DNA of 64,000 bases from a virus. This document shows, one piece after another, positions 3,229 through 54,562 of the stretch. Position 1 is the first letter of the stretch; every line of letters starts with the position of its first letter. Under the pieces are notes generated by a model. It was not told the DNA's origin, searched no databases, and saw nothing but the letters and a program-made list of their open reading frames with translations. A program made the position numbers and the translations under genes. The stretch lies in the IMG/VR virus record IMGVR_UViG_3300045988_154277. One strand, given 5' to 3'.

Positions 3229-3969
3229 TTACTTAGCCGCGTTCTCTTCCGGAGCAGCTTGGTCAGCATTCTTGTCTTTCGACTTGTCGGCACCACCTGC
3301 ACGCTTCGCGGCAGCGATGAACGAGTTGGCAACTCGGATGACGTTTCTGTCGTCCTCGACCGCCTTCTTGATGGCATCACGCAGCTGTTGAATGTATTCA
3401 TCAGTAGCTGCATTCTGCGCTTCTTTGAGCTGATCTTCAAGTTGACTTTTTGTCTTCCCAAGTTCATTGACAGCCTGCTTCAGTTTATTGAGAGCAGCCG
3501 TGAACTTACCTTCATCGGTAATCTTACCATCGATCACAGATCCGCCTTTGATTTCGAACGGACCTTTGAACTTCAGCGAGTTCAGAGCAGAAGCAGTACG
3601 TTCTTTCTGGTTGAAGAGCCATTTGAAGAAATTCGTAACTTTCGCCCAAAGATCCTTCAGGATCTGCTTGATCTTCTGACCGAGACCCTTCTTGGCCTCT
3701 TCGTTCTCAGCTTCCATAGAAGCGGCGCTGCTGAAGTTCTCTCCATAGAGAGCTTCCAGAGAACGAGTCACGCCATATTTCTTGATGCACTTGCTGATGG
3801 CGTTGACGTTGTCATAAGTGCGAACCGTAGCGGTGAGTTCATGACACAGATCCAGGACATCGGAAGCAGCCTGATTGAACTGGATCAGAGAATCCAGGTA
3901 CTCATACGAAAGTTCACCAGAAGCTTTCGGAGCCATGCCCAGATTTTCAAAACCAAGATTGATACCCAT
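3229..3969 (-). CDS. helical protein, paralog family member B (246 aa)
   Basis: MGINLGFENLG... and KKYGVTRSLEALYGEN; paralog of the 2106-3146 product. Confidence 0.6.
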   Translation of the reverse strand: MGINLGFENLGMAPKASGELSYEYLDSLIQFNQAASDVLDLCHELTATVRTYDNVNAISKCIKKYGVTRSLEALYGENFSSAASMEAENEEAKKGLGQKIKQILKDLWAKVTNFFKWLFNQKERTASALNSLKFKGPFEIKGGSVIDGKITDEGKFTAALNKLKQAVNELGKTKSQLEDQLKEAQNAATDEYIQQLRDAIKKAVEDDRNVIRVANSFIAAAKRAGGADKSKDKNADQAAPEENAAK

Positions 3970-22926: not shown

Positions 22927-24255
22927 TTACAAAATATATCCTAGGTTCGTGTTGAACGCGATCGATTCCAACCGATCTCTGTTCACCAGACTCGGAGTTA
23001 TAAGGTGATACATGTTGAGATTTACATAATACCATTCCACCAAGGTTCCTCTGGTTGCTGCGATCAAGATCTCACCCAACCAGGTTTTGGATAACGTAAC
23101 TTCGCTGTACTTGTGGATCGAAGTTTTCCAGTTCAGGAAGATCTTACGAAGTTGATCTAGCAGTGGTCCGAAGATCATATCCGTCTGTTGATAGACTCCG
23201 AATCGATCGTACGTGTAGATCTCAGGTTCTTGTTGGTCACAGGACAACCGAACGGTTACATCCGTGTATGGGACATGACAGAAGAACTCGATGAACTCAT
23301 CGAAATCGATCCCTTCCTCCAACCCGGATATTTGATCCATCAGAGGAGTAAGCGGATAACTCTCAGAAAGATGTACGTCTGCACAAGCCATGTCGAAGTA
23401 GCCACAGGCTAAATTTCGATCCTCTAGGTAAGGGAGCAGCGCATCCATCGTGAGGTAAGAAGGAGTGTTCAAACAGACCATGGTGACAGGGTCATATTGA
23501 CCTCGGAACATGAACTCATCGATCAAACATCTCGGATCTTCTTTCGCGTTTAAGCCGATCAACTCATCCACCAAGGTGAACAACCCATCTTGGTTCTTCT
23601 CATAGAAGACCAGATCCTTCAATAGATTGATCACCGTGGCAGGACGTTCTGGAGTTACCTTCTGTCGGATGTTGAATGCGAGGTCGTTCGGACACCAGCG
23701 GACGAAGTCACTGTCCATCCGAGTGTTCGATACGATCTGAAGCATATTGTCCAAATACTCCACGATCCCACACAGACCTCTGTAGTTGCCCATCGGGATC
23801 CGATCTGGTGTATCCGGATAGATCGGTCGTGCTACAGGGAGAGTGATGTTCGTGCTATCACTGATCTTCATCCCTAACACATAGTTCGACAATAAGAAAT
23901 CGATCGTTTGTGTAAAGAGGAAGGTCTCTGTAATACAACCTGGTTTACCATACGTCGCAGAGATAGGAACAAGCACTGGGGGAGTCCGATAAACTCCCCC
24001 AGTGTATATATCTCTATGCATTTGAAGACATCTTGGGTCGAATGTTTCATCGGTGATGAAGGTATGTGCGATCAGATACCCGTCCCAGGTGGAATACACC
24101 TTGTAGAATGCCAAAGGAGGAACACGGATGTTCCTCCCATAAGTCCAGGTATCTTGGGTACCCATACCGTCCCAAGTGTCTTCGCTTGTCTCTCCGAGGA
24201 TCATGGCACCAGGTCGATAGATCCGGTTCGGAACCGGAAGGATCGCCTTGATCAT
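22927..24255 (-). CDS. hypothetical protein (442 aa)
   Basis: Long ORF. Confidence 0.55.
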   Translation of the reverse strand: MIKAILPVPNRIYRPGAMILGETSEDTWDGMGTQDTWTYGRNIRVPPLAFYKVYSTWDGYLIAHTFITDETFDPRCLQMHRDIYTGGVYRTPPVLVPISATYGKPGCITETFLFTQTIDFLLSNYVLGMKISDSTNITLPVARPIYPDTPDRIPMGNYRGLCGIVEYLDNMLQIVSNTRMDSDFVRWCPNDLAFNIRQKVTPERPATVINLLKDLVFYEKNQDGLFTLVDELIGLNAKEDPRCLIDEFMFRGQYDPVTMVCLNTPSYLTMDALLPYLEDRNLACGYFDMACADVHLSESYPLTPLMDQISGLEEGIDFDEFIEFFCHVPYTDVTVRLSCDQQEPEIYTYDRFGVYQQTDMIFGPLLDQLRKIFLNWKTSIHKYSEVTLSKTWLGEILIAATRGTLVEWYYVNLNMYHLITPSLVNRDRLESIAFNTNLGYIL

Positions 24256-24261
24256 CGTTGT

Positions 24262-25875
24262 TTACCCCACTTGTTTTGTTTGCTCGATTTCAAGCAGCCA
24301 ATCGTAGAACGAGCAGATCGCCACGATCGTGATCTCCTGTGGTTCGATCAGCTTCCCATTGAGGTTGTCCTGATCCAACCAATCCCACAACCACGGAGCG
24401 GTGTTGTACACGTATCCGGTCAGGAGGAGTTTGTTGGTCAGTTCCTGGATGTAGTTATCCCAGTCCTTCCCAGATGCTCCGAACGGAGATGCTTCCAGCC
24501 TCTGCTTGCAACGACGGTACACATCGGTTGCACCAACGTTCAGTCGGAACTGTCCATCGTTGATCATCGAACTGACACCTTGATCGGAGGACTGTTGCAT
24601 GGTCATCGCATGCGCCAGCGTCTGATAATTGGTATCCAACTGGAAGAGAACCATCTGAAGCAGAGCCACCAGCTTGGTATACTCCGGACTCTTCAGGTAG
24701 AGGATCCCACGTCCACCACCGATGTCATCGCTGTAGAACATACTGCACAGCATCTGGTTGATCGGAGTTGGAGTGATCGGATGTTTCGCATAATAAGCGA
24801 GCACCGTCTCGTAGTCCTCAGGATCGATCCCGTAGAGGTTGAGATACTTCTTCGTGTTCTCCACAGCAACCGAGATCAACATCCGAGTATCACTCGTCTT
24901 GCGAGAGGTCATCGAGTCGATCTCGATCTGAGCCGTGTTGCCGTCATCCTCATGTTTGGTTGTGATCGGTTTACGACTGTAGGTTGGGAGTTTGTTGATG
25001 GTACTGTAGACCGTACGGATCGCTCGTTTGACCGAGACGATGATGTAGGTCATCAAGTTCCCGTCGCGGATGCTCAGATCCACATTGACGAACTGACGGA
25101 TTAACAACTGACTCTTCAAATAGAGAGTCAGATTGAAACTGTTATATCCATGCATCAGCGAGCTCAGAGAAGTCTCCGTTACCTGATTCACCGTATGCTC
25201 GATATAGTGATCGAGTTTGGCGATCAGCAACTGATACTTCCGATTAAACAGTCGACTGAAGATGTTCGCACACTGGATCTCTTTCAGCTTGCTGTCGATG
25301 TGTTGACTGAGATTCTTCATCATCGTACTGAACATCGGACAGAGCATCTTGCAGAGCAATGTGATCGTCATGAGATCGATCACCTCCGGCGGATGGAATG
25401 TCAACTCGGCGCTGTCCTGTGCTCGCTTCCCAGCACCTTCGAACAATCCGATCGGCATGTTCCCAACCACATATGCTCTGAGTTTGTCACAGAGGTTGAT
25501 GTTGCGATCCAGGAGATCCAGATAGGATCCGAGGTCTCCGATGAACTGCTCCAGATCGTACATGTTCCCATGACATTCCTGGAAATAGTTGTTGATCCGT
25601 CCATGCATCAGTCCGATGCAGGTTGCCAGTTCTGTTTTGTCATCCGAGCTCAATGTGTTCATGAACGCGTTGACCGATGCGAAGATCACATTCCATCCAT
25701 CATCGCCTCTGGATGGGTTGAGTTTCACATAAGTACTGATCTTGAAGACGAAGAGATCCTTCGTCTTATCCAACAGAGATTTCAGTTCCGTGTCGGAATG
25801 CTCGACATCCAGTTCGCTGATGTCGAGTTTCGCACACGTCACTTTTTCGTCTGTTACGAAAGGTTCGAATTGCAT
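24262..25875 (-). CDS. hypothetical protein (537 aa)
   Basis: Long ORF. Confidence 0.55.
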   Translation of the reverse strand: MQFEPFVTDEKVTCAKLDISELDVEHSDTELKSLLDKTKDLFVFKISTYVKLNPSRGDDGWNVIFASVNAFMNTLSSDDKTELATCIGLMHGRINNYFQECHGNMYDLEQFIGDLGSYLDLLDRNINLCDKLRAYVVGNMPIGLFEGAGKRAQDSAELTFHPPEVIDLMTITLLCKMLCPMFSTMMKNLSQHIDSKLKEIQCANIFSRLFNRKYQLLIAKLDHYIEHTVNQVTETSLSSLMHGYNSFNLTLYLKSQLLIRQFVNVDLSIRDGNLMTYIIVSVKRAIRTVYSTINKLPTYSRKPITTKHEDDGNTAQIEIDSMTSRKTSDTRMLISVAVENTKKYLNLYGIDPEDYETVLAYYAKHPITPTPINQMLCSMFYSDDIGGGRGILYLKSPEYTKLVALLQMVLFQLDTNYQTLAHAMTMQQSSDQGVSSMINDGQFRLNVGATDVYRRCKQRLEASPFGASGKDWDNYIQELTNKLLLTGYVYNTAPWLWDWLDQDNLNGKLIEPQEITIVAICSFYDWLLEIEQTKQVG

Positions 25876-27906: not shown

Positions 27907-30900
27907 ATGCCATTCACATTCGATATGTCACCGAGTGAAGAGCGTCTTCTCTACGACAAGTTCTTCCGGACGAATATGTTCCGTAGGATCAATGATCTTA
28001 CGAGATTGTGGAACCGAGAGGATCTTGTTGAATACCCCGTAGGGAGTATGCTTCACTTGATCGACGATAACTTCTTGATGAACCATCCTGTTGTGTTGGT
28101 TCCCGATACCTCTGGTTGGTCTATGACCAGAAAACCAGACCGTAAGTTCGTGATGCACATCATAGAACCGGTACCTGCAACAGCGATCCCTCTTACAGAA
28201 ACCTTCGCTCTACCTACCTCAGGGGTGTCTGTTACGATCTTGAACTTCAAGAAGCGTAATCAGAACCTGATGCGTCCTGTTGTGAAGATGGAGGATTTTC
28301 CGAGTCCGATGCGTCCTGAAGTACAGAGTATCATCTCGTACAACGCACTTTACCGTGCTCGTATCTTTGGACTGTTGCGAGGATATCGTCGGTTCAATTA
28401 CATCTTCACCAACATCTTCAATACCATCTGCTCGATCGGAACGGGAAGACGACATTTCATCCCGATCCCTGTCGGAGATAAGGTCTTTGATCGAAACAAG
28501 TTCATGACCTCTTTTATCAAACACGATAAAGGTTCTCTGAAACTTGCAGAAGATCCGTGGTATCTGTTCATGGTTCACTTCATGGGGTGGTTGAACACCC
28601 AAAACACACCCTCTCTGTTCGAGAAAGTCCCTGAGAAGTATTGGGAATATATCAACTTCGTTCTGTATACAAGAACCAAAGTTCTTGTTCTCAATATGAA
28701 GCTCTTGAAAGAGTTCAACGAAGGGAACAAGATCCTTTGGCGGGTGATGAATTTGATCAACCTGATGGCTGAGGAAGGTCATCAAGCTGCGATGCAGGAC
28801 TTCGGTGATGTTCCGGTTGCATGTGATACACAAGAAGAACCAGGAGAACTCGCTGTTCAAGCGGATACTCCTTTTACAGAAGAGAAGGAACCGATCCATG
28901 TCACTACTCAAGAGACTGCTTCTGATCGTGACAACCAAGATCAGAGTACTGTTCCACAAGGATCCCCCAGAGAGGAAGATCAGGTAAACGAGGTTACCTT
29001 ACAGCAACCTCCTGCGGAACCTGCCCCCAAACAACAGGAACCCCCGTCTCCTGTGAAGACGATGTTCACTTCTCCTACCAGGAGGAAACCCATCCCGTAT
29101 CTCACCACTCAGCAGAGAGTCAAACGGGAGACTGATGAGTTCGAAAAGTATCTCGATTTCGAACCTCAGACGCTGACGATCGATCCCAAGTGGTTAGAAG
29201 TAGAGATGGTGGAGGGGAAACAGAATGCTCCCGAGTTCAAAGAGAACATGACGGAAGAGGAACAGAAAACCTCCAACCAGAAGTTCTTGAATGAGATTGA
29301 CGAAGGAGCGAAGACTCATATCGAGAATGATCAACATCTCAACAACTATCAAGCAGAGCAAGCGAAGAAACTCGCTGAAGCATACAAGAACATCAAAGTT
29401 GGAGATAAGACGATCGAACAGATCATCCAGGAAGTACCAGATGACACGGTTGCAACCAACACGTTGAATTTCTTGGAGGACGATCCGGATATCGTGGATA
29501 AGTCCATGTTGAAATCTTCCGTTGCTACGTTCGAACACGACTACATGAAGAAACTCTTCCTTCGGGATATGGTGATGAACCTCACCTCATTCAACAAACA
29601 AGGGATGTTCCTGAAGCAAGTGGATGTGGAAGACGTCAGCGATAGTCTGAACCAGCTGATGGAGTACAAAGTCACCTACGAGGATACAAGCAAGAAAACG
29701 CACGTCATCCGATTCAAACTTCCCAAAGTAGATGAGAGAGGATACTGTTATGTGAACGGTACGCTTAGCGTCCTGAAGAAACAGAGAGTCCCTCTTCCGA
29801 TCTGTAAGATCAACCCGACAACTGTTACGTTGACCAGCAACTACAACAAGTATCTGGTGGTGCGGAATGTCACGGTGGCTCACAGTTATATCAACTACAT
29901 CGAGTCGATCCTGAACAAAGGCAATACACCAGAACATCCTGTTGTTGTTCAGCTGAACACCAAGACTTGGAACGATGTGACACTCCCCTACGAGTACACC
30001 TCGTTGGCGAAGAAATACCTCAGCATCAAACTCTCGTTGACAGAGACAGTTGAGTTCTATTTCAACCTGGAAGGAAGACACCAGTGGTTGAGGGATGTTG
30101 GGGGTCTCTTACCAGAGGACTTGGACCTCGTAAAATCGATCGAGAGCGACGCGAAATGCCTTGCTGTAGCGTACGTTGGGAAGCGTCTAATCGGGTTCAT
30201 AGATATCAACAACATATTTACCGTGATCAACTTGGACGACCATACAACCTCTGCTTCTACGACGATCATCGATTTCTTGTGTGAGCAGTTGAATGTAGCT
30301 CCGACTCCGCTGTCAGAGTGGACGGATTTCAAACTGTTGGAGACAACGGTTCCTGTGATCTTCGCTCTCTGTTATCGGTACGGTCTGAGTGAGATGTTGA
30401 ACTACACCAAGACACAGTATCGTATCTTGGAATCAGGAGAACGTTCCTATCGGAACTGGTCTGATGTTGTAATACGGTTCGCAGATAAGACGCTGATCAT
30501 CCCGAGGTCTCCTCTGGTGAACAGCATGCTGTTCGCTGGGTTGAACTTCTTCCAGTTGAACAAGATCAATATGGAAGAGATGGACAGTAAAGATATCTAC
30601 TACGATCTTCTCCAGAGCAAGAAACGTTCTGTTCATTTCCTGAAAGGGATCGATAACTTCTTCGATCTGTTCGTGGATCCGATCTCCAGAGAGGTTCTGG
30701 AACAGATGAAAGAACCAACCAATGCAAGAGATATCCTGATCCGTGCTACTCAGCTTCTGACGACAGAAGATCACAAACCTCAGGCTTCCAGCACCAACTT
30801 CCGATTCCGTTCTTATGAACAGATCAATAGTGCGATATACAAAGTACTGAGTCGATCCTTCGCCAACTACAGAAGCAAGAGTGTAGGCGCTACTCACAAG

Positions 30901-31269
30901 TGGAGTATCGCAGATTACGAAGTGCAGCAGATGGTTATGCAGGATCAGTTAAAAGAGAATGTCGACATCATCAACCCCATCAACGACATCAAGTATCAGG
31001 AGGAGTTCTCCCATGCTGGATTCGCTGGTGGACGGAAGAGTCTGCAGAGTTTTACAGTCCCAGATCGTCAGTATCCGAAAGATGCTGTCGGTATCATCTC
31101 AGAGGCTACCGTCGATAGTGCGAAGACTGCATTCGCAGCGTCCACTTCGATGGATCCGACGATCGTCAATATGCGTGGGATGACACTCACCTCTAACCCA
31201 GATGAGTTGAAACCTACTCAGATCTTGTCGATCAGTTCTTTGATCATGCCTGGAGTGACGCAAGATGAT
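27907..31269 (+). CDS. multisubunit RNA polymerase beta-like subunit, exon 1 (about 1121 codons)
   Basis: GAAGGAGG RBS. NTPEHPVVVQLN resembles beta ETPEGPNIGLIN, and the C-terminal SLIMPGVTQDD resembles beta SLIPFLEHDD. The ORF is closed by a TAA that lies at the 5' edge of group I intron A. Confidence 0.6.
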
Positions 31270-31681
31270 TAACATTATAACAGTCCGGTATACCCGAAGA
31301 GGGTGTGCTTGTTACCATTCCTAATACTAGGAAGTTCTTAAGGTTCTACATACTACAACGTAGCTCAAAAGGCAAGCGTGATAGTCGCGAAAGCAGAAAG
31401 AAATGTAGAAATGACCTATGCTGAAATAAAAGCCTGTTACAAGGTGCTAAGGGTTGCTAACAAGGAATTACTAGTAGCGAAGTCTTGTCTATAAGACAGG
31501 ATGTGCTCAACGACTAGGGGGTTAATCGCCCCGTACCCGCCAAGTGGCGCTGGGAAACGGAATGGACCCTAACAGATTAAGCTGAGGGTTTGACATAGTC
31601 TCTACATCTACGGAAAGCGTAGAGCAGAACTTAATGTTCGGGTGATGAGTAACGATCATCACTGAAGATAAAGAGCAAGCG
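31270..31681 (+). ncRNA. group I intron A (ORF-less); core to about 31622 plus a possible 3' extension
   Basis: P7 halves GACTAG (31512-31517) and TAGTC (31596-31600). Q/R region GGATGTGCTCAACGACTAGG parallels Tetrahymena GGAUGCAGUUCACAGACUAA. P9 hairpin CTACG gaaag CGTAG (31608-31622). Extra hairpin GTGATGA gtaacga TCATCAC (31642-31662). Confidence 0.65.
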
Positions 31682-31690
31682 TCAAAATTT

Positions 31691-32047
31691 AAACATTACT
31701 GAACCGTATACTGGAAACAGTGTGCGTGCATAGACCCTTTAATTGTCTGGGAGTTCCTAAAGCCTGTTGGACCACAACGTGACTTGTAAAAGTGAGCGTG
31801 ATGGTGACGAAAGTAGAAAGAATCAACAGGATGTCTCATGCTGCAATAAAAGTCTACTTCTAGTAGATGCTAAAAGACAGTAACAATGGATAATCAGCAG
31901 CCGAGATCCTTCACGGAGGATCAGGTTCATCGACTAGACCTGAGAAGGTCGTACCCCTCAAGTGAGGCTGCGGAAATAAGGGTCCGCTAAACGTATCGTA
32001 AGATACGCATGTGTGAGATATAGTCAGTACATCATGCGAAACGCATG
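31691..32047 (+). ncRNA. group I intron B (ORF-less), homologous to intron A along its whole length
   Basis: R: TTCATCGACTAGACC (31932-31937 is GACTAG). S: GAGATATAGTCAG (32021-32025 is TAGTC), nearly identical to Tetrahymena AAGAUAUAGUCGG. P9: CATGCG aaa CGCATG (32033-32047). Aligns with intron A from AACATTA onward. Confidence 0.65.
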
Positions 32048-33241
32048 AGCTGGGTAACCATTCCCGGGACGGAAGTAACGACTCCGTCTGAACACAAAAG
32101 CGTAAGTATCCACCTCTCTCACTACCTTCCCACTGAGAAGTGTGAAGTGTCTCGTCTTCGTACAGGTTACGAGAAGATCGTAGCCCATCGTTGTAATCCT
32201 CCCTTCGCTTATGCTGCAGAAGCAGATGGTGTGATCGAAGCTATCGATCAGGAAGCGAAGATCCTTCGTGTGAAGTACAAAGATAAAACCGTTGCCGTAT
32301 CGTTCGGTGATGATTACACTAAGAACGGCGGTGGTGGATTCTACTGTACTCAGAACATCGTAATCAACGGATACGAAGAAGGAGATAAGGTCAAGCGTGG
32401 AGATATTATCATCTACAACGACCGGTTCTTCACTCCTGATCCGTACAGCAAACAAGTCAATTGGAACATCGGTGTGTTGAAAGACGTCGTTCTTATCGAC
32501 GGTGACAGTACACTGGATGACAGTTGCATCATGGATCATGATCTTGCTAAGGATCTTGCATTCAACCCTGTCCATATCCGTGACATCGTGGTCACCAAGA
32601 AGACTACGATCCACAAATATGCATCCATAGGAACAGAGGTCAAATCGATCGATCCTCTGATGATCTTCGACCAGTCGGAACTGAATGAAGATATGTTCGG
32701 TGGACTGGATGAAGATGCGATCCGTCTGTTGGGTAAGATCAACAAGAGAACTCCGAAAGCCAAGTTCACTGGTAAAGTAGTCGCACTGGATGCGTTCTAC
32801 ATCGGAGGGATCCAAGACATGGCTCCTGGTGTTCGTGGGTTGGTCAGTCTGATCAACAAGATGAAATATCAGAAACACCAAGCTGCGAAAGGAACTGTCA
32901 ACCAGGACAACTACCCTGTTTCTCAGAACATCACTCAGTCCAACCGGATCGGTATGACCGAACTGGATGAAGAGACGGTGATCTTCCGGTTCTATATCCA
33001 GCAGGATATGAAGATGAACGGTGGAGACAAAGTGGAGTTCGATAGTTCCTTGAAATCCGTCTGCACAGGTATCTCGAACAACTCCTGGGTGAGTGAAGAT
33101 GGTTCGTTGGTAGGACATGCTCTGTTCTCCACGATCGGTATCGACAACCGTATCATCAACTCTCCTAAGATCGAAGGGATGTGCAACAAGATCTTGGAGA
33201 CTGCGGAACAACAGATCCTCAAGATGTATTTCGAAGAGTGA
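32048..33241 (+). CDS. multisubunit RNA polymerase beta-like subunit, 3' exon (about 398 codons; exact 3' splice site uncertain by a few nt)
   Basis: Matches to E. coli beta: [32 protein letters not shown] versus [58 protein letters not shown] versus [43 protein letters not shown]...NKILET versus GDKMAGRHGNKGVISKI...GQILET. The ATG at 32045 used by the ORF track lies inside intron P9. Confidence 0.6.
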   Translation, partial: [397 protein letters not shown]

Positions 33242-35640: not shown

Positions 35641-36108
35641 TTACGCGGGGATGAAGTAGAAGAGTTTCATCCGATTCGGTGTCTCGGTGGTAACGATGTG
35701 TGTCACACAATACATAAGACGTCCATCCGAAGCGGAGAACTTTTGTTTGCGGATCAGGATCTGACCCTGCATCTGCTCGATGGTATCACCCTCTTCCAGA
35801 TGATCTTTCTGAGCACACCAGTCGGTCCAGAGAGATTCTGTGATCGCAACTGCGTTGCTCGGAACAGAAGGATGCTGGTGATCACTGAAGAACAGTCCGT
35901 CTTCCCAGTAGTAATTGTTACCACTGCCAGGTTCGTTGGTCACGTGTTTGAGCGCCAGTTCCACCGTATCCACAAGACTGAGGATCTTGTTGTCCACAAC
36001 AGCACGACTTGCGGTACTGATGTCGCTCACCATCTCACCAGCGAGAACGGTCTTGATGTACGCTTCCACAGTCTGTTTCAGCTGTGCCTTGAATTGTTCT
36101 TTCGTCAT
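35641..36108 (-). CDS. hypothetical protein (155 aa)
   Basis: ORF divergent from the fibre operon. Confidence 0.5.
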   Translation of the reverse strand: MTKEQFKAQLKQTVEAYIKTVLAGEMVSDISTASRAVVDNKILSLVDTVELALKHVTNEPGSGNNYYWEDGLFFSDHQHPSVPSNAVAITESLWTDWCAQKDHLEEGDTIEQMQGQILIRKQKFSASDGRLMYCVTHIVTTETPNRMKLFYFIPA

Positions 36109-44640: not shown

Positions 44641-46323
44641 TTAAGCGAATGGATCGTACGTGTCTTCCTCTGCAGGAGGTTGTTCTGCTTCTACAACCGT
44701 TGGTTCTTTCGGTTCCTCTTCTTTGGGGAGAGGTTCCTGAGGAACAGGTTGTTCTGATTGAGGTTCCGTTACATTCTGGAAAAGCGCCAACCCTCCAGCA
44801 TCCGTCACCTCATTGTTGTTGTCGCTGTAGATATCGGGCACACTAGTGTCCTTATCCAAGTAGATATCATCCATGATACCTAGAACAGGACCCATGAACC
44901 GATACGCACAGTACCGATCCTCCTTCGGCGGCGGCGGCTCATCACGGTGTTTACTCCAACATAACGTCAAATAAGGCACTTCGTTCATGTTCCTTTCGAT
45001 ATACATGAAGATCAATCCAGTCAACTCCCTTCGGAATCCTTTACAGTCACCGAGATGGATCGCACCGTAGGATTTGACAACGTTGGCTTGACCACTTGCG
45101 TTTAACTCCTCAGCACGACTATCCAACTGAAGACCATGCAGCATCAGACAGTTGTTCCTCTGTCCGTAGTTGTACATCTTCTGCATCAACTTCTGAAGAC
45201 GTTTGGCTGGATTGTCACTATCCTCATCTACTCTCATCAGTGTGATGTAGTCGATGACCGTTGCAACAACCTCGTAGCCTTTCCTTTTCAGTTCTTCCAT
45301 CTCTTTCACGAAGTCTGAGTAACCGAAGTTCTCATCCTTACGCATCATGATGAACTTGATCCCGTTGCTGTTGAAATACCGAGCAACTTGCTCAGCCATC
45401 TCGCGCATCGGCATGTCTTTGGGAGGCTCTGCTCTCATCGCATTAACATAAGCCGACACCACCATACTGTTGGCGTTCTCAGGAACTTCGTTCTCCAAGG
45501 AGATCAATACCACACATGGGATCATACCAGGTTGTACATCTACTTTCCCGTAGACCGTACACCATCTGGCACAGTTCATCAACATCTGAGATTTATAGTT
45601 GTGAGAGGATGCTGCGAATGCCCACGACTCTCCTCTCTTGAATCCTCTGTCTTCTCCCAACATCCGGTTCAATGCCTTCAACCCAGTTGGGAATACATTG
45701 GATTTCCTCTTGTTCCTGTAGTTATCCAGAGACTTCATCAGAGCATTCGCATCTGTCATATCGACGTTGTCGATCGTCTCTGACATCCCGAATCCACCCT
45801 CTGCTGACTTCACCAGATCTCTTGCATATTCCGCCACATCATTCAAGATGATGTCGTTTGTCATGTCATCCGTTGGGTTGAATTGACTTCCACGGATCTG
45901 CATCTTCTGGATGATTCCCATGGACTTCGCCATCGCAACCCAGTTGCTCATCCTGTGAAGCAACCGAGTGACGCGCCGATCACTGATCTCTTCACTGTTT
46001 AGAAGAAGACTGCTTAACTGCTCCACGATCACGGGATCTTTCTGAGCCAGATCACTCTTCTTCAGTTTCACCACGATACGATTGATCTCTGCTTTCTTGC
46101 TGAGATCCGCATCTCTGGTGACGATATCCTGGATGATCTCGAAGAACACATCCAGATCTTTGTTCAGGATCTCTGGCTTCTTCTTCTTCGTAGCCATGTA
46201 GATATCCAAGATCGAGCCCAATGTCTCCTTGGAGTTGTCTGATTTAGAAAATGCTGCCAGACATACAGCATCCAACATGAAATCCGTATTAATCGCTATC
46301 ACGAGTTCACCTACCTCTTCCAA
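44641..46323 (-). CDS. DnaB-family replicative helicase-like protein (560 aa) with degenerate Walker A
   Basis: TGLKALNRMLGEDRGFKRGESWAFAASSHNYKSQ versus DnaB TGFTELD...IIVAARPSMGKT; VVLISLENE versus LIFSLEMP; VIDYITLMRVDEDSDNPAKRLQKL versus MIDYLQLMRVPALSDNRTLEI. Confidence 0.5.
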   Translation of the reverse strand: MEEVGELVIAINTDFMLDAVCLAAFSKSDNSKETLGSILDIYMATKKKKPEILNKDLDVFFEIIQDIVTRDADLSKKAEINRIVVKLKKSDLAQKDPVIVEQLSSLLLNSEEISDRRVTRLLHRMSNWVAMAKSMGIIQKMQIRGSQFNPTDDMTNDIILNDVAEYARDLVKSAEGGFGMSETIDNVDMTDANALMKSLDNYRNKRKSNVFPTGLKALNRMLGEDRGFKRGESWAFAASSHNYKSQMLMNCARWCTVYGKVDVQPGMIPCVVLISLENEVPENANSMVVSAYVNAMRAEPPKDMPMREMAEQVARYFNSNGIKFIMMRKDENFGYSDFVKEMEELKRKGYEVVATVIDYITLMRVDEDSDNPAKRLQKLMQKMYNYGQRNNCLMLHGLQLDSRAEELNASGQANVVKSYGAIHLGDCKGFRRELTGLIFMYIERNMNEVPYLTLCWSKHRDEPPPPKEDRYCAYRFMGPVLGIMDDIYLDKDTSVPDIYSDNNNEVTDAGGLALFQNVTEPQSEQPVPQEPLPKEEEPKEPTVVEAEQPPAEEDTYDPFA

Positions 46324-46374
46324 AGCTCATGCTATGCTTAAATGTCAACCCCTTACTATAGAGGTATCCAAATC

Positions 46375-48147
46375 ATGCAATCTTTTATCAAGTTCATCGC
46401 GGATGTCACCATCCCTTATAATCCGGACTGGTTGGCAGATCCGGACAAGATGTTCCGTTCGCTTAGCACAGAAGGTAAAGTATACTTCCTGATGCAACAA
46501 GCGATCGCCCTCAACTACCTTGAGCGAGTATACGATAAGGGTCTTCCGACACTTATTAAAGAGTATAAAGAGAAGGTCACCAAATGGTGGCTGGTTGACC
46601 TCGAATATGAGGTCAATGCTCTTGAGACAGACGATCCTTCTCTGGAGAAGGAAGGGTATCTCAATATCCTGGCTCTTCTCGATGATGACCGTAGCAACCA
46701 GATCGATGCGGAACGCTGTTCCGATTGGGCATCTCATCAACGAGAAGATGCTCCTGTTGCTATGAAAAATACATTCTATAGTCCATACTTGCGTTTCGCT
46801 GAACGAGCCCGCAGGTCGGAGACGTTGGCAGACGGTGAACATGCCCAGAGCACAGAGTCATTCAGTGTCCCTGGTCCAGTCACTCTTCCGACGTTCACCT
46901 ACCAGGGAGCGATCCTCAGCGTGCGTCACGATTTGAGTTATTCCGGTTATAAGTACGATTACACATCCAATCACAAATACGGGACATCCCAGTATGGATT
47001 GGGTGTTGGGTCCATCTTCTCCTACTGGAGAGGATATAACTGGACTGACTTCAAATTTAATAGTGTGGTGGGAGTGCTCGCTGCACAGTGTTTGGATTTG
47101 GATACAAACACCTTCCCAAACAACTCGCTCCTTTGGGCTTACTACTTCGTTTACTGCAAAGTGACCGGATGGCAACCGAAAGGTGCAAGTGAATCGAATT
47201 ACATTTGGCTCTCGTCTGAATCGAACTTTCTCAGACGCTGTGTGCTCAGCTTCTTGATCGATCTTCGTGATCGATACAAGGTCCAGTTTGACGATAGTGA
47301 GCTTCTGGCTCGCTTGATGCAAGGGGATACGGCTGAGGATGCAGATCAACTACACGCATTTCTGAAGGCATCCGAGCCGACAGAAGTAAGTGTCGAGATG
47401 TATCACGCTTTTCAGAAGAGTCCCTTCGCTCGTTTCGACGAGCTCGACTTGATCAAACATAAGAGGTTGTCTAGTCGTGAGTTGATGGATGCTACCATCG
47501 ATGCGAGGAACTCGGAAACGGACCCATCCGACACCCAGCAGGATGATGATTCAACATCGGGTAGATCCCGTCGTCGCAGAACCAGTAGACCCTCCAGTGA
47601 ACCGAATCTGTCGGACAGCAGCTTCGATCAACTGGATGAAGAGACTGGGATGACGGAAGATCCGGCACAGCCTGATGGTGAAGACGAAGAAGCTGCGGCC
47701 ACTGAAGATCCCAACACTGATGAGTTGTCGGACAACAACTTCGATGAGTTGGATCAGAACATGGACCCGGAAGCTGACGCTACTACTCCTGACGAAGAGC
47801 CGACCGACCCTGAAGGGAACCCTGAGGGCACAGAAGATACAACACACAACACACAACACACACAAGTACCTGATATGCCCGATATGGATGACAAGAAGGG
47901 CGTGAAGCTCGAACTGAGTGCGGGTGAGACCGCAAATTCGGTTCTTTACAGGATAGAGTTGGAGTCGTTCATTGATTCACTCCTAGCGAACTCTCCCAAT
48001 TTCTTGTCAGCACAGAAGGTTGAGCTGTTGAAACGTGTCAAAGCGTACTGGCTCAATCGTCTTTCACCTGAAAGCTTGGTGAACTTGCTGAACTCCATCA
48101 TCAAGTTACCCAAGTATCTTAACATCAACAAGAATAAGGACAAATAA
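46375..48147 (+). CDS. hypothetical protein immediately upstream of the capsid-candidate gene (590 aa; acidic, probably disordered C-terminal half)
   Basis: ORF track starts at 46342; ATG at 46375 has a GAGGT RBS. Contains an AACACAC x3 heptamer repeat at 47841-47861. Confidence 0.5.
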   Translation: MQSFIKFIADVTIPYNPDWLADPDKMFRSLSTEGKVYFLMQQAIALNYLERVYDKGLPTLIKEYKEKVTKWWLVDLEYEVNALETDDPSLEKEGYLNILALLDDDRSNQIDAERCSDWASHQREDAPVAMKNTFYSPYLRFAERARRSETLADGEHAQSTESFSVPGPVTLPTFTYQGAILSVRHDLSYSGYKYDYTSNHKYGTSQYGLGVGSIFSYWRGYNWTDFKFNSVVGVLAAQCLDLDTNTFPNNSLLWAYYFVYCKVTGWQPKGASESNYIWLSSESNFLRRCVLSFLIDLRDRYKVQFDDSELLARLMQGDTAEDADQLHAFLKASEPTEVSVEMYHAFQKSPFARFDELDLIKHKRLSSRELMDATIDARNSETDPSDTQQDDDSTSGRSRRRRTSRPSSEPNLSDSSFDQLDEETGMTEDPAQPDGEDEEAAATEDPNTDELSDNNFDELDQNMDPEADATTPDEEPTDPEGNPEGTEDTTHNTQHTQVPDMPDMDDKKGVKLELSAGETANSVLYRIELESFIDSLLANSPNFLSAQKVELLKRVKAYWLNRLSPESLVNLLNSIIKLPKYLNINKNKDK

Positions 48148-48149
48148 CA

Positions 48150-50387
48150 ATGTCTGCTATTGACAAATACCTGAAGCAGCTTGAAACTGCGTTCGCCAAT
48201 ACTGGCAAAGCTGGTGATCTGGTTGGTATCGGTCGCTCGACGTACGACGCTGTTGGGAAATACCTTACCACCCGCAACATGATCAAGCGTGGCGCCTATG
48301 AACAGATGTCCATCAGCAACGAATCCATGAGCTTCGAAACTGCGATGAACGCGCAGGGCGTCGATGGTCTGAAAGACCTCGTTGAGAGTTGCGGCGTTCC
48401 GCAGGCTTACGTCAAGGACTGCTGCAAGACCATCCTGAACATCATGAACCGTTGCTCGCAGGGTGCGGCCGCTGCTTGGCAGCAGCAGAACCTCCGTGCG
48501 GATCACACGGCCAACGGTCAGGCGGAAGCTCGTCCGCTCTCCTCGATCTACAGCTCCGACGTTGCTGGCATTCTGAACAGCACCGCTGTGGCCGGTCAGG
48601 AAGCGTTCGGTACCAACGTCGATATGGCGGTTCCGGATATGAAGGTTGCCATCACGGTTGCCATCATGGACTTCCATGTCCGTCTGATCCCCCGCGTTAT
48701 GCCGACCCGTTCCACGACTCAGCCGAACGTCTCCTACACCAAGGAGTGGCTGGAAGTTTACGATCTCACCGGCAACACCAAAGACAGCCAGCGTCTCGTT
48801 GACCTGTACGCCGATCCGTCCTTCGCTCGCAATGAGCTGAAACTGATCGAAGTCAACCCGGCCAACGATCCGGAACAGAAGTTCATCAACGGTGATGGTA
48901 CGCTCAAGTTCGGCCCGAAGGCCAACATCCTCGAGCTCTCCACCCGTGAGGACAAATACGGTTACAGCCATATCAACCGCACCGACCTGATCGCGGACAA
49001 CGTCCAGATCAAGTTCGTTCGTGTCGCTCTGACCTTCAACGGTGGCGAAGCGGAATACTTCGACTGCGAAGTTCCGATCAGCAAGAACCGTCTGACCCGT
49101 ATGGTCAACGCCAACGACTCTGCGATGCGCAATGCAGACATCAAGTTCCGTACCTACCTCCGCAAGAGTGCGATGATGGCGAACGGCTCTGCGTCCGGCA
49201 TCCTCTCGAACCTGAGCGACAGCGAAGCGTTCGTCCTTGACTTCAACGTCAAGCCGAGCATCTCTCTGAAGTGGGGTATCGCGGACTGTCTTGCGGACGT
49301 CAGCGTCAGCGTTCGTCACGATATCGACAACGCTCAACTCAGCGGATTCGCGACCTCTCTGATGAGCAGCGGCGCTCTGAGCCTGATCGGTTATGAACTC
49401 GACGCTCGTTTCTCGGAAGAGAACCTGCGCAAGACCTCCATCGCGGTTATGACCCACCGTGTTCCGTTCTCGTTCGATATCCCGATCGGTCGGAACTATG
49501 TGTTCGATTACGCGATCGGTCAGGTCAATGCGGAAGAGAACGCCACCAACCTCACCAAGGTCATCGGTCTCGGTCAGGACAAGGTTGCGCTCGAACTCGG
49601 CATCCGTACCATCGAAGATGTCTACGATCGCATCCGTGCGGTCAGCCCGAACCCGGTCGATCGTCCCGAATATGTCGGCACCAACTATGTTGCTGGCGAC
49701 AAGGTTCGCCCGTCCATCTTCATCGGCGATCTGGATCTGACCAATCTGGAAACCATCCGTGATGCTGACCGTGCTGGCGACATCAAGCAGAAGGCCATCT
49801 CCATGCTGACCGCTGCTACCAGCCGTATCCTTCAGGAGTCCTTCCTGCAGCAGCAGCTCGGTGGTTCGACCACGGCTACCTTCAAGGGTATCACCAGCAT
49901 CGAGATCCTCGGCAACGTCATCGGTATGCCGCACATCCACGACCATATGTCCAAGGATGATGGTCGCAACGTCGGTGACGGTGTGGAATACGTTCTCGTT
50001 CTGCCGAACGGCGTGAAGATCGAGTTCGTGACCTCCACCTTCGACAGCATGCGCGACAAGATCGTCATGTGGCCGACCATCCCGAACAACACCGAAAGTG
50101 AACTGCACTTCGCTCACAACTGGGACTATGGGTGCATGGTTGCCCATTACACCCCGAGTGGTGAAGCGGCTCACCATCGTCTGTTCGGCAACATCCGTGA
50201 ACTGCCGATCGTCGTCAACCCGCTGGGTCTCATCATCCAGGTCAAGGGTATCGAGCTGGCGAACGGTATCGCTCTCGATGGCGTCGTCCGTCCGACCTTC
50301 AACGTCAACGTGGAAGGCTCGGTTGTCACGACTGTCAACGGAACGATCACCACGGCTCCGGAACAGGGTGGCACTGAAGAGCCCTGA
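48150..50387 (+). CDS. highly expressed, codon-recoded 745-aa protein; candidate major capsid protein (alternative: another very abundant structural or shell protein)
   Basis: AAGGA RBS. G+C and codon choice visibly differ from neighbours (CTG, CGT, CCG, GGT, AAC, TTC, ATC, ACC dominate). Size is typical of jumbo-phage major capsid proteins. A full-length antisense ORF (828 aa) is a GC3 shadow. Confidence 0.45.
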   Translation: MSAIDKYLKQLETAFANTGKAGDLVGIGRSTYDAVGKYLTTRNMIKRGAYEQMSISNESMSFETAMNAQGVDGLKDLVESCGVPQAYVKDCCKTILNIMNRCSQGAAAAWQQQNLRADHTANGQAEARPLSSIYSSDVAGILNSTAVAGQEAFGTNVDMAVPDMKVAITVAIMDFHVRLIPRVMPTRSTTQPNVSYTKEWLEVYDLTGNTKDSQRLVDLYADPSFARNELKLIEVNPANDPEQKFINGDGTLKFGPKANILELSTREDKYGYSHINRTDLIADNVQIKFVRVALTFNGGEAEYFDCEVPISKNRLTRMVNANDSAMRNADIKFRTYLRKSAMMANGSASGILSNLSDSEAFVLDFNVKPSISLKWGIADCLADVSVSVRHDIDNAQLSGFATSLMSSGALSLIGYELDARFSEENLRKTSIAVMTHRVPFSFDIPIGRNYVFDYAIGQVNAEENATNLTKVIGLGQDKVALELGIRTIEDVYDRIRAVSPNPVDRPEYVGTNYVAGDKVRPSIFIGDLDLTNLETIRDADRAGDIKQKAISMLTAATSRILQESFLQQQLGGSTTATFKGITSIEILGNVIGMPHIHDHMSKDDGRNVGDGVEYVLVLPNGVKIEFVTSTFDSMRDKIVMWPTIPNNTESELHFAHNWDYGCMVAHYTPSGEAAHHRLFGNIRELPIVVNPLGLIIQVKGIELANGIALDGVVRPTFNVNVEGSVVTTVNGTITTAPEQGGTEEP

Positions 50388-50430: not shown

Positions 50431-50464
50431 ATCAGGTGTAGTAGGACAACCTACTACACCTGAT
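50431..50464. terminator. 15-bp stem hairpin after the recoded gene
   Basis: ATCAGGTGTAGTAGG acaa CCTACTACACCTGAT; preceded by a small ACTCG tataa CGAGT hairpin. Confidence 0.55.
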
Positions 50465-50888: not shown

Positions 50889-52703
50889 TTATTTTGAGGT
50901 CTCTACGCTCACACGGTTGGTTGGAACTTGGATCGTTTTTAGGTCCAGATTCAGGTGATGTTGTTCTGCGAACAGACTGAGCATTTCGTCATATCCAGGG
51001 ATGTTGAAATGCTGCTCACAAAGCTTGACTGCATTCTCTACAACGGCTGGATATCTGGAGAAGAACTCGAAGATATACTCAGCGTTCTGTTTGACGATCT
51101 TGTCTGCATACTTCTTCTCTGCTTTGGTCTTCTCTTTCGGTGGGAGAAGATCGATCTCTTCTCTCATCCTTTGTAGTTCCTCGATCGAATATGGACAACC
51201 TGTGATCCAGAGTACCGTAGCCTCTTTTGTCTCACGGGAGATGTTCATCGCGATCGTGATACTGGGATAGAACGAAGTTACATCCAAGTCACAACAGAGT
51301 CGATAGATGCCGGTTGGATCGTCAGACTCCTGCATACAACGACTACCCTTGTATCGCATCAGAGATGGACTGAGTACAGTACCGCCGACGTTGCTGATTA
51401 GTTTATCATAACTCTTCGCCATGGAACCAGATACGGTTCCAGGCACAGCTCCTTTAGATAGGCAATACTCGTAGAACTGTGCTTTTAACTGTACTGTCTG
51501 ATGAGCGAAGTCGTCCAACAGGGATGGTCCTGTCAACATGATCATCGAGGATATGTCGGTTGTGACATGATCTAGGATGTTGGGTTGCAGAACGTCGAAG
51601 CAGTTATATACAGCGTAGCCTACTTTGTCCTTGGTCTGCATCAGGTAGTGAGTTTGATTTGATCCGAACTTCATCTTACCAGCACCCAGGTTCTTCCCAC
51701 AAATATAATCCAATGTGTACATGACCTCACGTCCTTTTACCTTACGGAGTCGTCCATACAGACACATGGGATCCACCCAGTAACTATATCCAGGACATTT
51801 CAAGATATGCCACTTGTCTGCCAGATGTTCCACCTTCCGTTTGTCCTCTTCGAATTTAAACATTCGAAACTCAGGAGGAACATCAGGGTGTGCGAAGAGT
51901 TCAACTGGATCCAACCCACGGAACAGAGCACGTCTTGGGATCCAATCCAATTCGTAAGCATCGTTCCAAGCCAACAAGAAATCTGGTTTACACAGGATCG
52001 CTGTTCTTACGGATTGCTCGATCAACTCTTTCTCATTGGAGCACATGATGAACTTCGGTGTCCACTCTTCTGGGATGAACACTTTTTTGGCTTTGTCATT
52101 GAGCTGACTGTAGATGTTGTTCAACTCAAGATTCCACCGATCCATCAACTCCTGTCTCCAGTTCTCAGATGGTTGGAACCATTCTTGCAAGATCCAACAG
52201 TAGATCGTCCGGGTTTTCCAATCACAGTAACCGTTCAGGATGATCTGCTCATCTCCGAGAACGGAGGTTTCAATATCCATCACTCCGATGTCATAGGTTG
52301 TGATACCCTTCTTCGAAGCTTCGATATACTCCAACTTCATTTGGATCTCAGGATCGATATCTGCTCCATACACATAAGGACTCTCTAAGAGCTTCCGTGT
52401 GTTGATGTAGCCATATGTAGGGTAACCTAACGCTTTCGCTAAGGTCTCTCCCATCTTCTTATACTGACAGATATAGACATCCAGTTCTGACAGTTTTGCA
52501 CTCTCTCGTTTGTTCTCGTAGTTGCGAAGTCCTTTTCTCGCAACCCACACTCGTACCATAGGGTTCCTTACGATGTGTAGTTTGGACTCCAAGGTATCGA
52601 CATCTTTCACCATAGCCACGATCCCATCCATACCGGAAGGATTGTTGGATGGAGGGATATAACAACTGTGGATGAAGTTACAATTCGGTATCGGGTTATA
52701 CAT
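50889..52703 (-). CDS. family B (T4 gp43-like) DNA polymerase, N-terminal part only: exonuclease domain plus palm motif A
   Basis: Exo I YDIGVMDIETS. Motif A DLDVTSFYPSITIAMNISRET versus RB69/T4 DLTSLYPSIIRQVNISPET. ORF ends about 139 aa after motif A with no KxxxNSxYG or YGDTDS. Confidence 0.7.
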   Translation of the reverse strand: MYNPIPNCNFIHSCYIPPSNNPSGMDGIVAMVKDVDTLESKLHIVRNPMVRVWVARKGLRNYENKRESAKLSELDVYICQYKKMGETLAKALGYPTYGYINTRKLLESPYVYGADIDPEIQMKLEYIEASKKGITTYDIGVMDIETSVLGDEQIILNGYCDWKTRTIYCWILQEWFQPSENWRQELMDRWNLELNNIYSQLNDKAKKVFIPEEWTPKFIMCSNEKELIEQSVRTAILCKPDFLLAWNDAYELDWIPRRALFRGLDPVELFAHPDVPPEFRMFKFEEDKRKVEHLADKWHILKCPGYSYWVDPMCLYGRLRKVKGREVMYTLDYICGKNLGAGKMKFGSNQTHYLMQTKDKVGYAVYNCFDVLQPNILDHVTTDISSMIMLTGPSLLDDFAHQTVQLKAQFYEYCLSKGAVPGTVSGSMAKSYDKLISNVGGTVLSPSLMRYKGSRCMQESDDPTGIYRLCCDLDVTSFYPSITIAMNISRETKEATVLWITGCPYSIEELQRMREEIDLLPPKEKTKAEKKYADKIVKQNAEYIFEFFSRYPAVVENAVKLCEQHFNIPGYDEMLSLFAEQHHLNLDLKTIQVPTNRVSVETSK

Positions 52704-54088: not shown

Positions 54089-54562
54089 TCAGCCATGGAT
54101 CGCCTTGAACGCAGCTTCCACTTCTTTGGCAGCCTGATCCAGAGCTCCGCCTTCCTCAGCCAGACGCTTCGGAACTTTGTGCTGGAACTTCACGGAGACC
54201 ACGCCGTAGTTGTGATGAACTTCGCCGTTCGGATCACGGGGGTTCTTCGTTTCGACATGCTCTTTCATGCCGACAACGATACGACCGTTGCCGAGTCCGG
54301 CTTTGAGAACGCAGTCACGATGATCGTTCTTGACGTGATCCTTGAGGAACCCAACCGAACGTTCGGTGAGAGTGTCGATGGCCGCAGATTCCGCTTTCTT
54401 GAATTCGGCATATTCCGGAATGCCGTTCTCCTTGAAGAACTTGTTCAGTTCATCCTGAGACATGGTGAAATCGCCGTTCGACCGACGGGTGACCTCGCCA
54501 AGTCCTTCGACGTTGTAAGACTTCTGTTCGAATTCCTTCTTCTCTTTCGCTTCTTCGCTCAT
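54089..54562 (-). CDS. second codon-recoded, probably very highly expressed small protein (157 aa)
   Basis: AGGAG RBS; same host-optimal codon style as the 745-aa gene; own promoter-like motif upstream; double hairpin downstream. Confidence 0.55.
   Translation of the reverse strand: MSEEAKEKKEFEQKSYNVEGLGEVTRRSNGDFTMSQDELNKFFKENGIPEYAEFKKAESAAIDTLTERSVGFLKDHVKNDHRDCVLKAGLGNGRIVVGMKEHVETKNPRDPNGEVHHNYGVVSVKFQHKVPKRLAEEGGALDQAAKEVEAAFKAIHG

Follow-up and report, generated by a model that had tools for sequence, protein, structure and literature searches.

A phiKZ-type major capsid protein gene with strongly biased codon usage in an uncultivated jumbo phage

In many phages, codon usage in head and tail genes leans towards that preferred by the host (Lucks et al., 2008, PMC2266997). 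Capsids of the phiKZ type draw heavily on a single protein, the major capsid protein (MCP), with 1,620 chains per capsid in phiKZ (T=27; PMC11297242) and 1,615 in SPN3US (PMC10052503). The phiKZ protein, gp120, is cleaved between E163 and N164 (PMC11297242), and the SPN3US protease cleaves after the motif AXE (PMC10052503). Here we characterize a gene carried by the IMG/VR virus record IMGVR_UViG_3300045988_154277, of which a stretch of 64,000 nucleotides, referred to hereafter as the window, was analysed; it forms 64 kb of a 278,450-bp phage contig (ENA, BRIT16-1_SAMN02333979_METAG-scaffold_10). A preliminary description of the window had singled out the open reading frame (ORF) of 745 amino acids (aa) at 48150–50387 as a candidate MCP gene selected for very high translation. 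Our analysis indicates that this ORF very probably encodes an HK97-fold MCP of the phiKZ gp120 type, belonging to a phiKZ-related jumbo phage, and that its codon bias reflects long-term selection for decoding.

The 745-aa protein matched the Pfam family PhiKZ_MCP (PF25620) over residues 251–654 with a score of 54.4 bits (cut-off, 27 bits; E 8e-15), as well as PHROG 3231, ‘major head protein’ (E 9e-15). A database search yielded 98 homologues, all metagenomic and on contigs of up to 314 kb; the 97 with an annotated domain all carry PF25620. When a profile of 42 homologues was compared with the PDB, four solved capsid proteins were matched, including those of the Klebsiella jumbo phage phiKp24 (8bfl_A, E 4e-19) and of phiKZ (gp120, 8y6v_a, E 3.8e-15). 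Alignment of the same profile with gp120 by hhalign gave a probability of 98.1% (E 9.4e-14) over 461 columns and placed columns 213–708 on gp120 residues 229–733; the two proteins are 745 and 747 aa long. The order of genes agrees with this assignment. In the window, a minus-strand gene for a DnaB-like helicase is followed by a gene on the plus strand, then by the MCP gene and a DNA polymerase; the order in phiKZ is gp118 helicase, gp119 head protein, gp120 and gp123 polymerase.

The structure predicted by AlphaFold2 (mean predicted local distance difference test, pLDDT, 79.5; predicted template modelling score 0.66) was used as a Foldseek query. The top matches were 8bfl (E 7e-29), 8y6v (E 2e-27) and 7x30, with template modelling (TM) scores of 0.66–0.70 when normalised to the target. 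The capsid proteins of phiKp24, phiKZ and Staphylococcus phage S6 came first, followed by those of P1, T4 and HK97 and by encapsulins. The protein is thus predicted to have the HK97 fold with jumbo-phage elaborations. Both the search for an HK97 fold and the comparison with phiKZ-like MCPs, as proposed in the preliminary description, bore out the capsid assignment. Megablast and tblastn of the MCP gene against 50,697 phage records gave no match (tblastn E ≤ 1e-5), so that the gene is linked to known phages by profile and fold methods only. The MCP joins a known family as a new and very divergent protein, and a capsid gene can now be named for an uncultivated 278-kb phage that BLAST ties to no isolate.

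A motif consisting of S/G/A-x-E151 followed by A/S-F-G was present in all 42 aligned homologues, with E151 and G154 invariant. In the model, residues 147–154 form a disordered loop with pLDDT below 50. By analogy with phiKZ and SPN3US, the MCP precursor would probably be trimmed after Glu151 by a prohead protease, leaving a mature subunit of 594 aa.

Codon usage was analysed for 44 window genes called with a self-trained codon model. Codon fractions were compared with those of 26 long reference ORFs of the window; a 43-gene reference gave values within 0.02 of these. As the preliminary description had noted, the gene is richer in G+C than its flanks, with a content of 0.568; the 2-kb stretch holding it reached 0.54–0.57, as compared with 0.41–0.52 in all other 1-kb segments. 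The effective number of codons (Nc) was 33.6 in the MCP gene and 52.0 ± 4.9 in the remaining genes of 150 aa or more (z = −3.7), and the G+C content at third codon positions (GC3) was 0.731 and 0.550 ± 0.062, respectively (z = 2.9). To set these values against chance, the amino-acid sequence of the MCP was re-encoded 2,000 times with codons drawn from the rest of the window. The draws gave a GC3 of 0.532 ± 0.017 with a maximum of 0.595 (z = 11.7) and an Nc of 52.8 ± 1.5 with a minimum of 47.9 (z = −13). No redraw came near the observed values, which indicates that the bias is real and far beyond chance.

The gene had been described as using a short list of codons almost exclusively. Every codon on that list is indeed favoured relative to the rest of the window. 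Usage is close to exclusive for TTC (1.00 versus 0.84), ATC (0.96 versus 0.85), GGT plus GGC (0.93 versus 0.54), AAC (0.90 versus 0.66) and CCG (0.89 versus 0.34), but the wording was too strong for AAG (0.79 versus 0.50), ACC (0.70 versus 0.29), GAA (0.70 versus 0.50), CGT (0.65 versus 0.33) and CTG (0.54 versus 0.26). For the last two, most of the remainder is taken up by CGC (0.32) and CTC (0.38), giving combined fractions of 0.97 for CGT and CGC and 0.92 for CTG and CTC; CAG stands at 0.96. The avoided codons complete the picture. The other genes use TTG (0.25), AGA (0.20), GGA (0.29), ACA (0.24) and CCA (0.23) freely, as claimed, whereas in the MCP gene GGA falls to 0.04 and the other four are absent. 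GTA, TCA, CTA, TTA and ATA are likewise missing and GCA, like GGA, lies at 2–4%, while each of the codons that the MCP gene avoids makes up 5–30% of the usage of its own amino acid in the other genes.

The bias is codon-specific and not a general shift in base composition. At first and second codon positions the G+C content of the gene lies within the range of the other genes (z = 1.6 and 1.0). At third positions, the gene has 0.47 C and 0.05 A, as compared with 0.27 and 0.20 in the remainder of the window, while G is flat (0.27 in the remainder, 0.26 in the gene). Fisher tests showed depletion of the G-ending codons TTG, GTG, GGG, CGG and GAG and enrichment of CGT, GTT and GAA; the enrichment of GGT was nominal only. 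A flat G at third positions, the depletion of G-ending codons and the ordinary composition of the first two positions together point to selection on decoding and not to a compositional cause. The term ‘codon-recoded’ used in the preliminary description is a misnomer, as the gene is codon-optimised and nothing in it is recoded. In two relatives (loci L021 and L024) the gene caller had missed the MCP gene, which raised the question of stop-codon recoding; the frame in L021 is open, and no sign of recoding was seen.

The gene had also been called unlike the rest of the phage. It is a strong outlier, yet not a lone exception, since it occupies the end of an axis shared with other genes. In a principal component analysis (PCA) of relative synonymous codon usage built without the MCP gene, the latter projected to 5.15 on the first axis, and the other genes ranged from −1.96 to 4.24. 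Next along this axis were a 157-aa gene and a gene for an internal head protein (Table 1).

We propose that the selection is for efficient or accurate translation. With some 1,600 MCP copies going into a phiKZ-type capsid, the MCP would be the largest translational load of the phage, and long-term selection on its synonymous sites would settle on the codons best read by the tRNA pool of the host. The favoured set would comprise the C-ending codons of the two-fold pyrimidine boxes together with CGT/CGC, GGT/GGC, CCG, CTG/CTC, ACC, GTC/GTT, CAG, AAG and GAA, while selection would act against nearly all A-ending codons and against AGA, AGG, TTG and TTA. The higher G+C content would then be a by-product of the rise in C at third positions, and the open antisense frame discussed below a by-product of the loss of TTA, CTA and TCA.

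The alternative that survives best places selection or mutation on the nucleic acid itself. It could take the form of avoidance of A- or AU-rich RNase sites, of mRNA stability or structure, of escape from host nucleases or defence, of transcription-associated mutation or of biased gene conversion at a recombination hot spot. We regard it, all forms taken together, as improbable. The almost wholesale removal of A-ending codons speaks for it, as do the strong hairpin 3′ of the MCP gene and the mosaic similarity of the surrounding region to one relative, L002 (see below). The preference for GAA over GAG, the enrichment of CGT and GTT and the depletion of G-ending codons do not fit such a cause. 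Moreover, the gene upstream of the MCP gene ends 3 bp from its start on the same strand, is probably part of the same transcript and has no codon bias (Nc 54.8), which tells against mutation tied to transcription or to the region as the cause. Codon bias is even along the MCP gene, weaker only in the first 75 codons and as strong in the propeptide as in the mature part, and the pattern matches that of T4 gp23, for which host and optimal codons are known.

Comparison with related loci bears on a second alternative, already raised in the preliminary description, namely that the gene was recently acquired from a GC-richer donor whose signature has not yet worn away. The gene does form a sharp compositional island, with edges at the gene boundaries and a G+C content of 0.568 in a window of about 0.47. 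In 33 related loci, with MCPs 22–99% identical to that of the window and G+C contents of 32–55%, the MCP gene ranked first for GC3 in 25 and had the lowest Nc in 25. The vectors of codon preference of the MCP gene relative to its flanks correlated with that of the window at rho 0.27–0.98, and at 0.65 or above in 28 of the 33. A recent transfer is rejected because the bias recurs in these 25 of the 33 loci and also in phiKZ gp120 and T4 gp23; the syntenic MCP gene is the most biased gene in relatives with backgrounds of 32–55% G+C. The ordinary composition of first and second codon positions, the flat G at third positions with several G-ending codons depleted and the variation of other window genes along the same codon axis are likewise at odds with a donor signature. 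The window contains no tRNA gene, and none of the annotated neighbours was recognised as a mobility gene (no search was made for flanking repeats). Taken together, these observations make a recent transfer very unlikely.

Amino-acid identities to the relatives tell against transfer as well, as those of the MCP are in step with those of the flanking genes. For L002 they were 94% in the MCP and 81–99% in the flanks, and for L004 78% and 41–91%, with 66–72% for the four largest neighbours. Synteny around the MCP gene is kept from the closest relatives through to phiKZ. As judged from these identities and this gene order, the MCP gene has been inherited vertically with its neighbours. At conserved residues the same codon was retained in the MCP gene at a fraction of 0.82 in L002, as compared with 0.61–0.77 in flanking genes of similar identity, and of 0.63 in L004, as compared with 0.33–0.53. 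There was one exception in each case, the upstream gene, which at 0.90 (L002) and 0.64 (L004) matched or exceeded the MCP gene. Nucleotide identity to L002 was 0.93–0.97 over about 45750–48550, in the 5′ part of the helicase gene and the gene upstream of the MCP gene, and 0.81–0.88 in the middle of the MCP gene and most flanks. Together with the 90% codon retention in the unbiased upstream gene, this pattern suggests a mosaic or a recombination tract.

The preliminary description had left room for another abundant structural or shell protein, for instance a tail sheath or the chimallin of the nuclear shell. On bias and size alone, the product could be any abundant protein of around 700 aa. The matches by sequence, profile and fold, however, were all to jumbo-phage MCPs and then to HK97-fold capsid proteins and encapsulins, and the gene sits at the gp120 position of the phiKZ gene order, which leaves this alternative with even less credit than a recent transfer. 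In the 64 of 278 kb covered, no protein was recognised as a chimallin, and single-sequence PDB searches with three window proteins gave no match; we therefore do not claim membership of Chimalliviridae for the phage.

An ORF of 828 aa runs antisense to the MCP gene, in the register that pairs the first position of each sense codon with the third position of an antisense codon, and had been put down to the codon bias of the sense strand. TTA, CTA and TCA, which read as stops on the antisense strand, occur 0 times in the MCP gene against about 12 expected (P ~4e-6), and the antisense frame is open because these codons are missing. A single TCA codon breaks the frame in L002, the MCP of which is 94% identical, and it is broken also in L004, L005, L006 and L007. 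That the antisense ORF is a genuine overlapping gene constraining the sense codons has a negligible probability: it exceeds the sense ORF in length and its frame is open in several relatives too, but this openness follows mechanically from the lack of three sense codons, single TCA or CTA codons abolish it in relatives as close as 94%, its translation is of low complexity and rich in R, V and D, and it is the sense frame that the codon model scores highly and that has the 98 homologues. For annotation, the sense ORF is the real gene of the two.

The ribosomal-protein, EF-Tu and EF-G genes of Escherichia coli were used as a codon reference, as a proxy that may not be the host. On this reference the codon adaptation index (CAI) of the MCP gene was 0.616, as compared with 0.399 ± 0.062 for the other genes (z = 3.5), a difference in the direction that the preliminary description had predicted. 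For 14 of 18 amino acids the best codon was the one used most in E. coli, and codon fractions correlated with those of the reference set at r = 0.82 for the MCP gene and r = 0.79 for T4 gp23. The direction of the shift was nearer to that of phiKZ in Pseudomonas (rho 0.78) than to that of T4 (rho 0.46), which indicates that the shared codon preferences are generic; the shared preferred codons are common to many bacteria. The E. coli proxy fits well overall but not for Lys, Val, Ser, Ala and the Leu codon CTC, which leaves an enterobacterial-like host as no more than a possibility.

Several points weigh against the reading of the gene as an MCP gene selected for decoding. The best codons depart from the E. 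coli proxy at Lys (AAG), Val (GTC), Ser (AGC) and Ala (GCG). AAG makes up 0.79 in the MCP gene as compared with 0.32 in E. coli, GTC 0.51 as compared with 0.10 and CTC 0.38 as compared with 0.05, while GCA and GTA are near 0 where E. coli has 0.27 and 0.26. The high expression of the MCP is presumed by analogy, from the capsid copy numbers of phiKZ and SPN3US, and the fold is that of a predicted structure. Near-duplicates are present among the 33 related loci, and the counts given above overstate their independence. Neither the window nor any of 38 related loci contained a tRNA gene; the window covers 64 of the 278 kb, so that phage tRNA genes elsewhere in the genome are possible. The codon usage of the MCP gene is nevertheless best explained by translational selection, to which the codon-specific shift, the gradient across window genes, the 25 of 33 loci and the phiKZ and T4 controls all point.

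The preferred-codon set is a usable but not decisive clue to the host. Among 185,579 species genomes only two gave matches, a Clostridia metagenome-assembled genome (MAG) from sheep colon and a Prevotellaceae MAG from rumen; the two conflict and probably reflect binning noise. Outside the MCP gene, window genes prefer ATC (0.85) and TTC (0.84–0.85), while T-ending codons are preferred over C-ending ones in GAT (0.66–0.67), TGT (0.72–0.73) and CAT (0.54–0.55). This uneven genome-wide pattern may reflect the host or an avoidance of triplets made up of A and T only. A Prevotella or other Bacteroidota host, suggested by sample names and by the genome-wide ATC and TTC preference, was considered and set aside as unlikely. 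A Shine–Dalgarno core was present at −18 to −4 in 25 of 31 genes starting with ATG, as compared with 11% of random 15-mers, and strong Shine–Dalgarno usage makes a Bacteroidota host unlikely.

Two IMG/VR contigs, L018 and L020 (235–238 kb), encode MCPs only 31–32% identical to that of the window with codon fractions that correlate with its own at r = 0.93–0.96, which suggests that very divergent phages of this MCP family share one host type. The MCP genes of the clade have a common fingerprint, with C at third positions high and A near zero, AAG, GTC and CTC favoured, GCA and GTA absent, and strong ribosome-binding sites. It is possible, though we put it forward as a doubtful proposal, that the window belongs to a large, deeply divergent phiKZ-like clade of human-gut and ruminant metagenomes and that the fingerprint points outside the classical Proteobacteria hosts, for example to Clostridia or Negativicutes. 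If this were true, the codon preference of the MCP gene could reveal the tRNA pool of the host and be used to assign hosts to such phages.

The two genes that follow the MCP gene on the codon-bias axis are listed in Table 1 with the other features. The 157-aa protein had 5 homologues and no Pfam, PHROG or PDB match, and its AlphaFold2 model (pLDDT 46.5) was unusable; the protein is probably also made in very large amounts. In phiKZ-like phages, internal head proteins are plentiful in the virion. Five minus-strand genes (18884–19936, 19961–21664, 21703–22866, 22927–24255 and 24262–25875) also have raised GC3, of 0.56–0.70, and separate from the MCP gene on a different PCA axis, with mostly negative values on the second component. 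The last of them belongs to PHROG 3209, a family entry without a function, and the five have no Pfam or PDB sequence match. The codon-biased genes 35641–36108, 18884–19936 and 19961–21664 gave no match in Pfam, PHROG or PDB.

Table 1. Coordinates of the MCP gene and of other features of the window.
Feature	Coordinates	Strand	Evidence or remark
MCP gene, phiKZ gp120 type, 745 aa, strongly codon-biased	48150..50387	+	ORF, Pfam, PHROG, PDB profiles, predicted fold, codon statistics
Predicted N-terminal propeptide, aa 1–151	48150..48602	+	Conserved motif, low-pLDDT loop, phiKZ/SPN3US analogy
Shine–Dalgarno-like AAGGA	48136..48140	+	9 nt 5′ of the MCP ATG, overlapping the last codons of the upstream gene
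Artefactual antisense ORF, 828 aa	47946..50432	-	First sense codon position pairs with third antisense position
Upstream gene, co-oriented with MCP gene, 601 aa from first start (called 590 aa)	46342..48147	+	phiKZ gp119 position
Divergent DnaB-like helicase, synteny anchor	44641..46323	-	Pfam PF20307, E 6e-49; phiKZ gp118 position
DNA polymerase, synteny anchor	50889..52703	-	PHROG 3011, E 4e-90; in phiKZ, gp123 ‘polymerase’ downstream of MCP
Perfect 15-bp inverted repeat, 4-nt loop, no T-run	50431..50464	.	44 nt past the MCP stop, between convergent genes
157-aa gene, second on codon-bias axis	54089..54562	-	Nc 38.3; biased also in relatives L002, L004, L005, L006
phiKZ-like internal head protein gene, 246 aa, third on axis	3229..3969	-	Pfam PF12699 (phiKZ_IP), E 1.6e-9; first component 3.0, Nc 40.8
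Intron A, 404 nt	31270..31673	+	Rfam RF00028, 43.1 bits, E 2e-9; full model length, below gathering score
Micro-exon, 17 nt	31674..31690	+	Between introns A and B
Intron B, 410 nt	31691..32100	+	Rfam RF00028, 21.8 bits; full model length, below gathering score

Pfam, PHROG and PDB sequence searches with the 601-aa upstream protein gave no match. The inverted repeat downstream of the MCP gene is a candidate for a bidirectional terminator or an RNA-stabilising hairpin, and may act as either. A scan for sigma-70 promoter and terminator consensus sequences around the MCP gene found nothing above chance. The sequence AACATCAAC was considered as a leader or promoter motif and dropped; it has 50 matches as compared with 23 expected, mostly Asn-Ile-Asn codons inside coding sequences.

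The window also contains a gene for the beta subunit of a phage-type multisubunit RNA polymerase (27907–33241, plus strand), the product of which is 23–29% identical to those of cultured phiKZ-like phages; together with the internal head protein gene, it marks the phage as phiKZ-like. The polymerase gene is broken by two group I introns without ORFs, lying 17 nt apart. Splicing with the 5′ exon ending in T and the intron in G would give an uninterrupted ORF of 1,506 aa, with the predicted ligated junction ...GATGAT/AGCAAGCGTCAAAATTT/CGTAAG.... The introns are paralogous and about 59% identical to each other. Relative L043, with a 99% identical protein, has intron A only and L044, with a 79% identical protein, has intron B only; the junction peptides are identical. 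The 398-aa ORF listed at 32045–33241 begins inside intron B. These tandem introns are a more unusual feature of the window than the codon bias of the MCP gene, which opens no new question.

Among described systems, T4 gp23, to which the preliminary description had likened the gene, offers a parallel in codon usage. It is the most codon-biased gene of its region, with an Nc of 34.2 (33.6 in the window MCP gene), the highest GC3 and an E. coli CAI of 0.685 as compared with 0.355 ± 0.065 for its neighbours (z 5.1; window MCP gene, z 3.5), and it encodes a protease-processed HK97-fold capsid protein, as is predicted for the window MCP. It differs in belonging to another MCP family, in its length of 521 aa and in having a known host, and its preferences for Lys, Val and Ala are those of E. 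coli, unlike those of the window MCP gene. The major head protein of the Klebsiella jumbo phage phiKp24 (8BFL) provided both the best PDB profile match and the best fold match; its deposited chain has 570 aa and 16% identity, and its host is an enterobacterium.

The likeness to phiKZ gp120 is close as well. Besides a nearly equal length, the window MCP would share with it an HK97 fold carrying additional domains (Foldseek TM score 0.70, normalised to the target) and a predicted N-terminal propeptide of about 150–160 aa ending in x-E. Both loci run from a DnaB-like helicase on the opposite strand through a head gene and the MCP gene to a polymerase, and among 26 neighbouring genes gp120 has the highest GC3 (0.43, as compared with 0.21–0.40) and the lowest Nc (37.1). 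The two differ in that the window MCP is only about 18–22% identical to gp120, that the window phage comes from gut or rumen metagenomes, that the upstream neighbour has 601 aa as compared with 177 aa in gp119, and that the polymerase downstream of the window MCP gene sits on the opposite strand. The phenomenon itself is already published: the gene is one more example of the rule set out in 2008, a rule that holds across the phiKZ-type MCP family at any genome base composition.

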